Assembly: GCA_965205505.1 (NCBI GenBank)
Contig: CBDBHB010000008.1
Location: 96,001-160,000, forward strand
Source: Acidobacteriota bacterium
GTDB lineage: Bacteria > Acidobacteriota > UBA890 > WLXD01
Length of the DNA stretch: 64,000 nucleotides
Reading direction: 5' to 3'
Below, piece by piece: positions 50,170 through 54,509 of this stretch. The notes under the pieces are model-generated. The model saw only the letters and a program-made list of their open reading frames with translations, was not told where the DNA came from and did no database searches. Made by a program: the position numbers and the translations under genes. Positions within the stretch are counted from its first letter, which is position 1; every line of letters starts with the position of its first letter.

Positions 50170-50739
50170 TCAGAACGTGAGGAGCTCCTGTCGCTTGGCC
50201 TCGGCCAGTTCCTCGACGCGCTCGCAGAACCTGTCGGTCAGCTCTTGACCCTGCTTGAGCGCGCGGTGCGCATCGTCCTCTGAGAGTTCCTTGTCGTTCT
50301 CGAGCTGCTTGACCTGGTCGTTCATGTCGCGACGAATCTGCCTTATCTCCGTCTTCCCGTGCTCTGCAATCGTCCCGACGTTCTTGGCCAAGTCGTGCCG
50401 ACGCTCCTCCGTCAGCTCGGGGATCGGCACGCGGATCACAGTTCCGTCGTTGTTCGGGTTCAGCCCCAGGTCCGACTTCAGGATCGCCTTCTCGATGGCG
50501 ACGATGGAGCCCCTGTCGTAGGGCTGCACAACGAGCAGCTGTGGCTCCGGAGCCGCCAGGCTGGCGAGTTGGTTCAACGGCGTCGCTGTGCCGTAGTAGT
50601 CGACCAGCACGTCGTCGAGGACTGCGGTGCTTGCGCGACCGGTCCGAATCGTCCGTAGTTCACGACTCATTGCTTCGAACGCGTCGTTCATCCGCTGCTG
50701 CCCGGCGCGTAACGCCTGCTGGACGCCATCTTCCGTCAT
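50170..50739 (-). CDS. frr: Ribosome recycling factor
   Basis: IRTGRA, VDYYG, LGLNP, P.LTEERR. Confidence 0.97.
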   Translation of the reverse strand: MTEDGVQQALRAGQQRMNDAFEAMSRELRTIRTGRASTAVLDDVLVDYYGTATPLNQLASLAAPEPQLLVVQPYDRGSIVAIEKAILKSDLGLNPNNDGTVIRVPIPELTEERRHDLAKNVGTIAEHGKTEIRQIRRDMNDQVKQLENDKELSEDDAHRALKQGQELTDRFCERVEELAEAKRQELLTF

Positions 50740-50751
50740 CGCTCGAGCCCC

Positions 50752-51498
50752 TCAGTTGCTATGCGAGTACTCCGCGGGTGCGATTAACGATCCGATCGCC
50801 TCACCGCAGACTGCCCTCACGATATTACCGGATTCCCGCATGTTGAAGATCAGAATGGGGAGCTCGTTCTCCATACAGTGAGCAACGGCCGCTGAGTCCA
50901 TTACCCCGAGTCGACGGCTCAGCACTTCCTCGAACGTGGTCCGCTCGATCAGCTGCGCGCTCGGGTCACTGACTGGATCCGCGGTGAACACTCCGTCGAC
51001 CTTGGTGCCCTTCATCAATACATCGGCGCCCATCTCCAGCGCCCGCAGCGCGGCCGCCGTATCAGTAGAGAAATACGGGCTACCGGTGCCGGCCGCAAAG
51101 ATGACTACGCGACCCTTTTGTAGATGCCGCAGTGCCCGACGACGAATGAAGGGCTCGGCCACCTGGTCCATGCGCAGAGCGGACATGACACGGGTGTCGA
51201 GCCCTGTCTTCTCGAGGGCCTCCTGCAACGCCAAGCTGTTCATTACCGTTGCCAGCATGCCGATGTGGTCGGCGGTGACACGATCGATTCCGAGATCTTT
51301 GGCATTTATGCCCCGGAAGATATTCCCACCGCCGATGACGATGCCCATTTCGTCGCACGCTGAGCGCGCTTCGCGGATCTGCTCAGCGATGCTGTGGGCG
51401 ACCCGGTGATCGATTCCGTAGCCCACCGAGCCCATCAACACCTCGCCGGACAGTTTCAGAAGCACGCGGCGATACGCCGGCCGAGCGTCGTTGGTCAT
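50752..51498 (-). CDS. pyrH: UMP kinase
   Basis: RVLLKLSGE, GGGNIFRG, FSTDTAAALRA. Confidence 0.97.
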   Translation of the reverse strand: MTNDARPAYRRVLLKLSGEVLMGSVGYGIDHRVAHSIAEQIREARSACDEMGIVIGGGNIFRGINAKDLGIDRVTADHIGMLATVMNSLALQEALEKTGLDTRVMSALRMDQVAEPFIRRRALRHLQKGRVVIFAAGTGSPYFSTDTAAALRALEMGADVLMKGTKVDGVFTADPVSDPSAQLIERTTFEEVLSRRLGVMDSAAVAHCMENELPILIFNMRESGNIVRAVCGEAIGSLIAPAEYSHSN

Positions 51499-51599
51499 GC
51501 GACCCGCAAATCCCATCTGCGATAGGCAACGATCATCTGTTTACAGGCCACTTCTAAGAGAAGGCCTAGTTCGGTCAAGGGCAATGTGGTGCCCAGCGA

Positions 51600-51800
51600 A
51601 GAATCGATCTGCACGCCATGCTCCTATTCGCACTCTGGTGGACGAGGATTCAGGTCGTCCGGTGCATTCTGGGGTCCGTCCCGATTCGAGGCGCTGCAAT
51701 CTAGCTGCCGAGCTCGAAGCTCGTAGTGACCTTCGCAGTCGCCCGGACCGGGCGGTCAGATCGATAACCGTTGGGTCGCGTCGCCCTACCGACCTCCTGG
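51600..51800 (-). ncRNA. Putative bridge/seek RNA of the IS110 element
   Basis: Stem-internal loop-stem at 51690-51743 and a second stem-loop at ~51620-51668; loop segments match the element's own junction; boundaries approximate. Confidence 0.55.
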
Positions 51801-51812
51801 TTGCGGGTTAGT

Positions 51813-52315
51813 TCATGCTGCTGAAACCTCTACAGGTGCGCGCAACGGTTCGTACTCGTCTCCACTCAGCCACAGTCGGTGCAGCACAACGGCGAGCTTA
51901 CGGGCGACAGCAACTGCTGCCTTTTTGTTGCCATGAGGACCACCGCGTCCGGCCAGCTTGAGCCCCCAGCGTCTGAGCTCAGTATCGGGCCCGAAGGGGC
52001 CCAGGATGTAATGCGCCGAGCCCACCAACAGGCGTCGGAGCATTTTGTCGCCCGCCTTGGTTATTCGTAGCGCAGGGTCCTTGTCCCCCGACTGCCGTTT
52101 CTTCGGTCTCAGTCCCAGGTACGGGCCCACGGCTCTGGAGGTATTGAACCGCTCCGGCTCCTCGAGCGTCAGCACATACGCCAGTGCGGTCAGAGCTCCG
52201 ACCCCGGCCACTTGCTGGAGCTGCTGTGTCTCCGGGTATCGCCCCTGGCACAGCTGCACGATCTGACGCTCGTATTGCTGGATGTTGCCCGTCAGCATGG
52301 CGATCGTTTCAAGCA
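51813..52315 (-). pseudogene. IS110 recombinase C-terminal fragment (N-terminal DEDD domain missing)
   Basis: GVG.LTA, YLGL.P...QSG, RITKAG...LRRLLV, AVAVARKLAV.LH. Confidence 0.9.
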
Positions 52316-52380
52316 CTCCTTGCCTGCACTTCGCAAGACCCTGTCGCCAGACCCACCACACTTTCACCACGGCCTGCTAG
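52316..52380. mobile_element. Partial family A copy (65 bp) at the tsf stop
   Basis: CTCCTTGCCT..CGCAAGACCCTGTCGCCAGACCCACCACACTTTCACCACGGCCTGCTAG. Confidence 0.85.
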
Positions 52381-53012
52381 TCGGAGCTGACAGCGTTGCT
52401 CACCGCCAAAGTGGCATCTGAATCACCAATCGCCAGCCGTGAGAAACGCCCAACGCGGATGTTCTCTCCAAGCTTCGTGACAGCGTCGGTGATCAGATCG
52501 GTGACCTTCTTGTCGGGCTCTTTGACGAAGCCCTGCTCGAGCAGGCACGTCTCGGCCAGGAACCGGTTGATCTTTCCGTCGACGATCTTGTCGATGATGT
52601 TGTCCGGCTTGCCTTCTGACACCGCCTGCTCACGGTACACCTGCCGTTCGGCTTCCAACGTCGTGGCATCGACCTCGTCGCGACCGATGTGCTTGGGGTT
52701 TGCTGCCGCCACGTGCATGGCCAGGTCGCGGGCGAGGGAAACGAATTCCTCGTTTCGTGCAACGAAGTCAGTCTCGCAGTTGAGCTCGAGCAACACCGCG
52801 ATCTTGCCTCCCATGTGCACGTATGTCTCGATGCGTCCCTCGGTCGCCGCGCGGCCGGCCTTTTTGGCGGCCTTCGCCTTGCCCATGGTGCGGAGAACCT
52901 TGATTGCCTCGTCGATATCTCCGTTCGCTTCCCGCAGCGCCTGCTTGCAATCCATGAAGCCGACGCCGGTGCGCTCTCTTAGTTCCTTGACGAGGATCGC
53001 ACTGATGTCCAT
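52377..53012 (-). CDS. tsf: Elongation factor Ts (short form)
   Basis: VKELRERTG, ELNCETDFVA, LAMHVAA. Confidence 0.97.
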   Translation of the reverse strand: MDISAILVKELRERTGVGFMDCKQALREANGDIDEAIKVLRTMGKAKAAKKAGRAATEGRIETYVHMGGKIAVLLELNCETDFVARNEEFVSLARDLAMHVAAANPKHIGRDEVDATTLEAERQVYREQAVSEGKPDNIIDKIVDGKINRFLAETCLLEQGFVKEPDKKVTDLITDAVTKLGENIRVGRFSRLAIGDSDATLAVSNAVSSD

Positions 53013-53091
53013 CTGTTGTCTTCCTCGTGAGCAAAGTACGTGGCAGTCACGGAGGTGTCCGCTCCACCAGCGGTTTGGTAGCAGTTGGGCG

Positions 53092-54509
53092 TCAGGCCTC
53101 GTCGGTCGCCGACGCAGTCTCCGAGTCGGTGTCGGGCTCCTCCAGCGCGACGGCCTCAGCTGTCTTGTCGTCGGCCAGGCCTTCCTCCGCCAACGCAGCC
53201 GCCTCTTCTGCTGCGAGCTCGTCTCCCGCCTCTGCATCGTCGGACGCCGCCGCCTCCGACGAATCCGCTGCCTCGACTACCTCATCTGCGGCCTCAGTGA
53301 CCTCAGTGACCTCAGCGACCTCAGCGACCTCAGCGACCTCCGCGACCTCCGCGACCTCAGCGACCTCAGCGACCTCAGCGACCTCAGCGACCTCAGCGAC
53401 CTCAGCGACCTCAGCGACCTCAGCGACCTCAGCGACCTCAGCGACCTCAGCGACCTCAGCGACCTCAGCGACCTCCGCGACCTCCGCGACCTCCGCGACC
53501 TCCGCGACCTCAGCGACCTCAGCGACCTCAGCGACCTCAGCGACCTCAGCGACCTCAGCGACCTCAGCGACCTCCGCGACCTCCGCGACCTCCGCGACCT
53601 CCGCGACCTCCGCGACCTCCGCGACCTCAGCGCAGCGACCTCAGCGACCTCAGCGACCTCAGCGACCTCAGCGACCTCCGCGACCTCCGCGACCTCGACC
53701 TCCGCGACCTCAGCGACCTCAGCGACCTCAGCGACCTCAGCGACCTCAGCGACCTCAGCGACTTCCGCGACCCCAGCGACTTCCGCGACCTCAGCAGCTT
53801 CGACGACCTCATCGAGGGTGGCCTCATACGTGCCTCGACCCGCCAGGAGTGCATTCGACGCCGCCCCGCAGAACAGTCGGATCGCACGCAGGGCATCGTC
53901 ATTGCCCGGAACGACGAAGTCGATCCCGTCCGGATCGCAATTCGTATCAACGATCGCGACGACCGGGATCCCCAGCTTCAAAGCCTCATCGACCGCTATC
54001 CGCTCGCGCCGGATGTCCATCACGAAGACGACGTCGGGCAGGCCCCCCATGTGCTTGATTCCGACGAGGTTGCGGTCGAGCTTGAAGAGCTCACGCTTGA
54101 GCTTCAGCACCTCCTTCTTGGGCAGAAGATCGAAGCGCCCATCCTCCGCCATCGCCTCGAGATCCTTGTAGCGATCGATGCTCTTGCGGATCGTTTGATA
54201 GTTGGTGAGCAGCCCCCCGAGCCAGCGGTGGTTGACGTAGTACTGACCGCAGCGGGTCGCCTCCTCGGCGATGATCTCCTGAGCCTGACGCTTCGTACCG
54301 ACGAAGAGCACCTTGCCGCCCTGTGCCGCTTCCTGCTCGAGGAAGCTGAGCGCGTCCTTCCACGCCGCCTGGGTCTTCTGCAGGTCGATGATGTAGATAC
54401 CGTTCTTCTTCCCGAAGATGAATGGCTTCATCTTGGGATTCCAGCGCCCGGTCTGATGGCCGAAATGGACCCCGGCCTCGAGCAGCTGCCGCAGCGAAAC
54501 GCCGACCAC
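53092..54509 (-). CDS. rpsB: 30S ribosomal protein S2 with a very long (EVA)n acidic tail; frameshift at ~53632
   Basis: [30 protein letters not shown]; the acidic frame resumes after the repeat and ends at TGA 53092. Confidence 0.93.
53291..53796. repeat. 9-bp tandem array GACCTC(A/C)GC, about 55 units
   Basis: Directly visible; one 5-nt unit at 53632-53636 and one 6-nt unit at ~53691. Confidence 0.97.

Follow-up and report, generated by a model that had tools for sequence, protein, structure and literature searches.

The window (the whole stretch of DNA analyzed here, 64,000 nt) carries on its minus strand the genes rpsB (Ribosomal_S2) and tsf (EF_TS) and, beyond a gap, a gene of the amino-acid-kinase family that occupies the pyrH position, and then frr (RRF). 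The gap, located between tsf and pyrH at positions 51502 to 52381, is the site of a piece of an insertion sequence (IS) and of MITE remnants, and the IS remnant shares its strand with rpsB, tsf, pyrH, and frr. For the pyrH-like gene, the longest frame opens at 51516, within a MITE remnant, and the ATG at 51498 (MTNDARP...), just beyond that remnant, looks like the true start. On the other side of the gap, the TAG stop codon of tsf (52377 to 52379, minus strand) falls within the terminal CTAG of a family A MITE. The long open frame of rpsB holds a 9-bp tandem array (GCGACCTCA; 57 copies with 93% matches, window positions 53288 to 53795); since the S2 domain takes up only residues 9 to 224 of 410, this array would either add a long repetitive tail to the protein or fill the rpsB-tsf spacer.

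The IS piece (51553 to 52316, minus strand) is a 5'-truncated IS1111-type copy that represents 764 of 1406 bp; its identity to 28 full-length copies begins at 52316 and stops at the right end. Searching the same genome with positions 51520 to 52400 returned approximately 30 places, 98 to 100% identical, and each of these matches begins at window position 52316, which means that the left end and transposase residues 1 to 181 are missing from the window copy. Lost with them is the DEDD domain, while the right end, the whole 260-nt non-coding region, and transposase codons 182 to 348 are retained. The open frame found here (51813 to 52370, minus strand, 185 aa) is IS-derived only at 51816 to 52316 (residues 182 to 348), its first codons coming from the MITE-A remnant. 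It matches PF02371 only (63.4 bits); in a search with the intact transposase, residues 179 to 348 are matched here, and the string GLRPKKRQSG, read by eye, corresponds to the GL-P----S(t)G motif of the C-terminal domain. At its internal break, the IS is fused to a family A MITE piece (52317 to 52381), the first 64 to 65 nt of a ~280-bp MITE with the tip CTAGCAGGCCGTGG...; at its right end, it is followed by a MITE remnant of ~50 bp (51502 to 51552), derived from the ~270-bp MITE whose tip took the insertion, with contigs diverging at 51502.

The window copy is a dead, 5'-truncated insertion sequence of the IS1111 family with an intact RNA gene, and it cannot move because it has neither a left end nor a catalytic domain. 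The first-pass annotation had called this end orphaned, an apt label given the absent left end, the absent residues 1 to 181, and the fusion of the break to the family A piece. It had also taken the region for a bridge-RNA-like end of the IS110/IS1111 kind; that this is the right, non-coding end of an element of IS1111 type, located 3' of a truncated transposase, agrees with the PF02371-only frame and with the comparison with the intact 348-aa copy described below.

Intact copies, family membership, and homologs

A BLAST search of the same genome with a longer copy identified 28 full-length copies, one copy that is ~180 bp short, one interrupted copy, and the window piece (797 bp). To set the end positions, right ends (30) and left ends (27) were aligned and compared with uninterrupted ~270-bp MITE copies (empty sites). 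An intact copy is 1406 bp long and reads, on the IS strand, AGATGAG-ATGAGAAGGCC-...-GGCCTTCTCAT-AGA. It thus has 11-bp subterminal inverted repeats, ATGAGAAGGCC and GGCCTTCTCAT, with terminal extensions of 7 nt on the left (AGATGAG) and 3 nt on the right (AGA), the shared AG being counted once. In the window, the right end (51553 to 51566, minus strand) is made up of the 11-bp subterminal inverted repeat GGCCTTCTCTT, which has one mismatch to the usual ...CAT, and the 3-nt extension AGA; the non-coding region extends over 260 nt from the stop codon (51813 to 51815) to the end at 51553. Insertion is specific for site and orientation and produces no true target duplication, as the empty sites hold a single AG.

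The intact copy in locus L002 encodes a 348-aa protein that contains PF01548 (64.6 bits) and PF02371 (62.3 bits) and matches the NCBIfam model NF033542 (IS110 family RNA-guided transposase) over residues 5 to 333 with 202.8 bits, at a cut-off of 140. The definition of the IS1111 family, in the parts of the account by Siddiquee et al. (2024, PMC11187229) cited here and below, includes DEDD N-terminal and PF02371 C-terminal domains in a transposase of 330 to 350 aa, subterminal repeats of ~11 to 13 bp with 7-bp left and 3-bp right extensions, a long downstream non-coding region, the GL-P----S(t)G motif, and site- and orientation-specific insertion without true target duplication. The element fits this definition in its domains, protein length, repeats, extensions, non-coding region, motif, and mode of insertion.

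The transposase frame is uninterrupted in only 10 copies. It is split at two recurrent places, residues ~90 to 92 (at least 9 copies) and residues ~134 to 138 (6 copies), in loci L037 to L051 and others; these recurrent splits could represent mutations common to the copies or an error that the assembly makes systematically at a base run. The depth of the IS contig in one DNA run is 174 versus ~7 in the flanks, in line with the copy number. The non-coding ends are highly uniform: 30 copies show 0 to 3 differences from the consensus, and one further copy has an indel. The window end is one base off the consensus, in the subterminal repeat and hence outside the guides, and is identical to those of five other copies. 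Among the copies in this genome, the target loop (see below) is invariant and the donor strand is changed in one copy elsewhere.

For comparative analysis, a protein search returned thousands of homologs; an alignment of 38 was used, and 80 loci were fetched at 49 to 60% identity. End motifs, namely, AGATG.. followed by ATGAGAAGG.. on one side and ..CTCAT followed by.GA on the other, nearly always with AG after it, are common to 58 of the 81 loci. The 23 loci without both motifs were dropped, and identical non-coding ends were collapsed, leaving 48 rows. Locus L073 and close duplicates were excluded from the alignments. L073, L088, L091, L096, L097, L102, L105, L107 to L109, and L124 have non-coding ends of 420 to 500 nt, some 150 to 200 nt above the rest, and in several of these the extra sequence follows the stop codon and precedes the RNA scaffold. 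A locus search in genomes with the single protein gave 1 relative, an order-level genome search gave matches at E of 1e-40 in 3 of 26 genomes, including the window's own, and a metagenome locus search gave 7 loci, none of them with >60% identity.

The RNA scaffold, its guides, and the target

On the minus strand, positions 51743 to 51690 read GGCGACUGCGA-AGGUCACU-A-CGAGC-UUCGA-GCUCG-GCAGCUAG-A-UUGCAGCGCC and form the predicted target-binding stem-loop, in which GGCG-A-CUGCGA and UUGCAGCGCC make up the outer stem, CGAGC-UUCGA-GCUCG folds into the inner hairpin, and an internal loop separates the two. This combination of stem, internal loop, and hairpin appears in the minimum-free-energy fold of the non-coding end; the fold of the whole 263-nt non-coding sequence is not unusually stable (z-score of -1.80, with 8 of 200 shuffles folding as well). 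Among the homologs, a simple pattern, ..gaCUGCG-(loop ending in CU)-hairpin-(loop ending in AG)-(A/G)U.-GCAGC.., is found in 46 of the 48 non-redundant rows. RNAalifold on 36 sequences retains the outer stem and a second stem, both with compensatory changes, such as UA in 23, CG in 10, and UG in 3 sequences at the outer-stem column pair 12/91, and CG in 32, GC in 3, and AU in 1 at another pair. By eye, the outer stem of the window element can be lengthened by CCCGGU / AUCGGG; this addition does not fit all relatives and was left uncounted.

A covariance model (R1) trained on 35 homologs, not including the window sequence, has a single match in the 64-kb window, at 51611 to 51752 on the minus strand (67.8 bits, E of 4.9e-15), which is full length (model positions 1 to 161) and delimits the putative seekRNA/bridge-RNA region with its target-binding and donor-matching arms; the model also matches 15 of 21 further loci. 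A scan of positions 51300 to 52600 against Rfam, with E up to 10, gave no family match, the sole hit being a chance one to an unrelated family (13.9 bits, E of 4.5). All strings and coordinates cited in the first-pass annotation are present in the sequence, and the hairpin that it had pointed out at 51743 to 51690 proves to be the conserved target-binding loop, judging from the scaffold pattern in 46 of 48 rows, the covariation of guides with flanks described below, and the sole match of the covariance model that it had proposed to build against IS1111 non-coding ends.

The 5' strand of the internal loop, AGGUCACU (51725 to 51732, minus strand), pairs with the target strand 5'-AGTGGCCT-3', that is, the core AG and the right flank, at 8 of 8 positions with one G:U pair. 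The 3' strand, GCAGCUAG (51701 to 51708, minus strand), contains CUAG in the same sense as the left flank CT plus the core AG. Dinucleotide shuffling shows how short these matches are: an 8-nt pairing with the flank, with G:U allowed, turns up in 1767 of 20,000 shuffles (8.8%), and such a pairing with CTAG 15 to 60 nt downstream in 200 of 20,000 (1.0%). The window sequence alone is weak evidence for guides, and the observation rises well above chance only through the comparative data, namely, the conserved scaffold, the covariance-model match, and guide-flank covariation.

That covariation was evaluated in 46 elements, with L095 (no scaffold by the pattern) and L121 (flank too short) excluded. 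Across the elements, the 5' loop strand complements the core and the right flank, and the 3' strand repeats the left flank and the core, so that the complement of the top strand lies 5' of the bottom-strand match; the same order has been reported for IS1111 seekRNAs (PMC11187229). Guides score 7.74 of 9 and 6.41 of 7 against their own flanks, compared to 6.08 and 5.25 for cross pairs, and none of 5000 permutations reaches the observed summed score, a test that overstates independence because many of the homologs are close kin. In 18 of the 46 elements, the match to the element's own right flank extends to only 5 to 7 of the 9 positions. The clearest case is the nearest relative, L023/L026, from the same order, with a transposase that is 68% identical and a gene that is interrupted. 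It has the same ends and scaffold, and its loops, CGGACUCU and GAGUAG, match its own flanks, AGAGTCCG and GAGT-AG. Thus, the loops change with the targets, the opposite of the invariant loops that the first-pass annotation had named as evidence against its reading.

In the genome of the window, right flanks of the element read AGTG(G/A)CCT in all 28 cases (27 with G and 1 with A), and left flanks end in CT in 25 of 27. Empty sites read nCTAGTGGCCTGTAACAG and occupied ones nCT-IS-AGTGGCCT; there are 109 unoccupied CTAGTGGCCT sites in the genome, versus ~13 expected from base composition. On the plus strand of the window, the target reads AGGCCA-CT-AG, the core AG of the IS strand being CT on plus. 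What remains of it at 51545 to 51552 (plus strand, AGGCCACT) is AGGCCA and the core CT, or AG TGGCCT on the IS strand, with CTTCTA at 51551 to 51556. The target AGGYCA-CT-AGC predicted in the first-pass annotation therefore stands for the most part: the tabulated flanks of the copies (right, 28 of 28; left, 25 of 27) and the 109 empty sites fit AGGYCA-CT-AG, and the final C, which on the IS strand is a G ahead of CTAG, has to be dropped. On the IS strand, CTAG is preceded by G in 9, T in 8, A in 8, and C in 2 of the 27 occupied sites and by A in 62, G in 21, T in 14, and C in 14 of the 111 empty ones; a preference for this base (G in 9 of 27 occupied versus 21 of 111 empty sites) is not convincing.

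The element inserts at the tips of an abundant MITE. Most of its right ends are followed by a member of a genome-wide family of ~270 bp with the tip CTAGTGGCCTGTAACAGATGATCG (207 BLAST rows). Family A, which is distinct from it, has long terminal inverted repeats starting with CTAGCAGGCCGTGGTGAAAGTGTGG (266 BLAST rows), and family-A-like left flanks are seen in three intact copies elsewhere. The family A remnant in the window is not an insertion flank, because the point to which it is joined is a break inside the transposase gene. Accordingly, the earlier suggestion of an insertion at a MITE boundary holds for the right-end side, where the MITE tip at 51502 to 51552 was hit, and fails for the family A remnant at 52317 to 52381, which had been taken for the other flank. 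Variant MITE families open with TGGCCTGAGTCAG.. or TGTCCTGTAACAGAGG..; all of them share with family A an initial CTAG and a tip resembling GGCC.

The target arm is followed downstream by another conserved arm, ..CCCA.C.-UGCAC-hairpin-GUGCG-.AU.GAAG.., in which the strand after GUGCG repeats the right-end tip and the core, with AUGGAAG in elements that have CATGGA ends and AUAG.AG in those with CATAGA ends. In 45 of 45 rows (3 more rows have no pattern match) and in 9 of 9 further loci, this donor strand changes together with the right extension (GGA or AGA). In the window, it is AAUAGGAG (51621 to 51628, minus strand), in the same sense as the right-end tip ATAGA plus the core AG, with 6 of 7 matches plus a wobble. 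The UAGGAG (minus strand, 51626 to 51621) that had been noted as complementary to the element end occupies this conserved donor-matching position. As for a strand pairing with the left end, relatives carry CCCA(A/C)CU, which fits AGATGGG at 6 of 7 positions, so that a fit is seen in most of them, and two variants covary (L061 and L054), whereas others do not; among these is the window element, which has CCCCAGAA in its place, with no fit to AGATGAG. The outward TTGACC near the end (51574 to 51579, minus strand), also pointed out in the first-pass annotation, is part of a conserved feature, as TTGAC(A/C/G/T) precedes the subterminal repeat by 10 to 12 nt in each of the 18 aligned elements. If the right and left ends were joined, GAAGAT would come to lie 18 nt after TTGACC, and by analogy with the literature (PMC11187229, as far as cited here) the two are likely to form a circle-junction promoter, with TTGACC as its -35 box.

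Proposed mechanism and the possible activity of the truncated copy

It is very probable that this region is a dead IS1111 copy whose non-coding end encodes a seekRNA/bridge RNA that guides insertion at MITE tips. The conserved stem (..GACUGCG / GCAGC..) would close the internal loop that holds both target guides; its 5' strand AGGUCACU would pair with the target strand AG-TGGCCT and the CUAG of its 3' strand with the opposite strand at CT-AG. With both strands of the loop reading the target, the recombinase would insert at the AG core (CT on the plus strand) of CT-AG-TGGCCT, a MITE tip. The AAUAGGAG of the second arm, matching the element's own right tip, may serve donor recognition, and the promoter to which TTGACC would contribute would be complete only once the ends join in a circular intermediate. 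The anatomy of the element, the flanks of its copies, the empty sites, the conservation of the scaffold, and the covariation both in the stem and between guides and flanks are computational observations. The published work on IS1111/IS110 elements suggests, in addition, that the RNA is produced, that it binds the transposase, and that it guides recombination.

The truncated copy could also be something other than inert. Read-through from rpsB-tsf might transcribe it in the sense direction and thereby supply guide RNA in trans to intact transposases, of which the genome has 10 copies with an intact frame. The strand that the orphan shares with rpsB, tsf, pyrH, and frr would allow this, and its RNA region, one base off the consensus outside the guides, would give an RNA identical to that of intact copies. 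A promoter/terminator pattern scan of positions 51350 to 52550 found nothing promoter-like and a single terminator-like site, which lies within tsf on the plus strand; on the minus strand, the stretch from tsf to the IS piece has no terminator-like site, although such a scan is a simple pattern match. The contigs of RNA libraries (two runs of one study) contain an IS variant, with a single contig spanning both its transposase gene and its non-coding end. However, these contigs continue as intact IS past 52316, such libraries can contain DNA, and the strand, the ends, and the source copy are not visible in contigs. Among the RNA-library contigs matching positions 50700 to 53100, none bridges 52316 or any other copy-specific junction and none covers tsf or pyrH. 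Furthermore, with ~30 other copies of the same RNA gene, there is no evident need for the orphan. We consider a supply in trans unlikely. It is likewise rather doubtful that the orphan acts as a stand-alone guide-RNA gene, constantly transcribed by read-through from the rpsB-tsf genes, which are strongly expressed, and independent of the circle-junction promoter; if it did, this constant supply could help explain the presence of ~30 copies in the genome.

Another alternative is that the truncation is an assembly artefact, a false join of the IS to MITE-A at 52316/52317 in place of a copy that is really intact. Indeed, none of the contigs from the DNA run bridges 52316: the pieces stop there, and loose ends continue as intact IS or as intact MITE. 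However, such stops say little, since short-read contigs break at any repeat boundary, and an assembly in 9 contigs with 28 IS copies placed suggests the use of long reads. We regard an artefact as very unlikely. Finally, that the loop-flank matches arise by chance or as a by-product, with the transposase protein itself reading the MITE tip and the hairpin serving as a terminator or stability element, would account for the short matches in the single sequence (8-nt pairing in 8.8% of shuffles) and the modest fold z-score of -1.80 but is exceedingly improbable, given that loops vary with flanks in 46 elements (0 of 5000 permutations as high), that the nearest relative keeps the ends and scaffold with different loops and target, and that published IS1111 elements require the RNA and can be reprogrammed (PMC11187229, as far as cited here).

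Comparison with known IS110 and IS1111 elements

The reading of the window region as a dead IS1111 copy with a guide RNA gene places it among well-described systems. In the parts of Siddiquee et al. (2024, PMC11187229) used here, the seekRNA-bearing IS1111 elements are ISEc11, ISPa11, ISKpn4, and ISPst6, and the seekRNA is an RNA of 70 to 100 nt that copurifies with the transposase and is needed for movement. The present element shares with these four a DEDD transposase of 330 to 350 aa, subterminal repeats of 11 to 13 bp, the 7-nt and 3-nt extensions, and a long downstream non-coding region in which the complement of the top strand lies 5' of the bottom-strand match. As with ISPa11, which targets a REP sequence, its target is a repeat. 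In contrast to these elements, however, that target is a MITE tip with only 2 conserved bases left of the core; the likeness is one of features, read computationally.

The similarity extends to IS621 (Durrant et al. 2024, PMC11208160, again as far as cited here), with which the element shares an internal loop whose two guide strands address both DNA strands around a 2-nt core (CT, on the plus strand) and a second, donor-matching region; a PDB chain of the IS621 transposase matches residues 188 to 339 with an E of 9.6e-8. Nevertheless, the RNA of IS621 comes from non-coding sequence at the left end, which lies upstream of its recombinase gene, whereas here it lies downstream, in the right end; the order of the loop strands is reversed, and the subterminal repeats are long. 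IS621 has two internal loops; here, only the target loop is clear, and the donor part shows a strand matching the right end rather than a simple internal loop. According to Durrant et al. (PMC11208160), many IS1111 elements have their donor-binding bases in a multi-loop.

The element also resembles ISPpu9, an IS110-family element located in repeats that has the Ssr9 RNA gene downstream of its transposase gene and extra copies of the RNA gene elsewhere, in the description used here (PMC12288879). In contrast to that case, the stand-alone RNA gene in the window is clearly what a deletion has left, with half of the transposase gene still attached.

Insertion into the terminal repeats of another mobile element has a parallel as well. 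IS4321 and IS5075 of the IS1111 family reportedly (work of Partridge and Hall in 2003) insert within terminal inverted repeats that belong to transposons of the Tn21 family. The hosts differ, being MITEs in the present case and Tn21-family elements in the other.

The mechanism contains nothing new, as it was published in 2024 for IS1111/IS110 elements, and the element is a clear but ordinary example of RNA-guided IS1111 insertion. It accounts for one abundant repeat in this genome and for its position at MITE tips. It also illustrates that one can start from raw sequence, read off the guide loops of an IS1111-type element together with its target, and afterwards check them. The homologs make up a natural series, in which one conserved RNA scaffold carries many guide pairs, each matched to its own flanks, and which could help in the design or survey of RNA-guided recombinases. 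Natural retargeting between relatives, as seen here, parallels that between ISEc11 and ISXne4 (PMC11187229, in the parts cited). Among the relatives, two seem to have a core that differs from AG: L061 has GG at the end of both its left flank and its 3' loop strand, and the right flank of L135 starts with TG.
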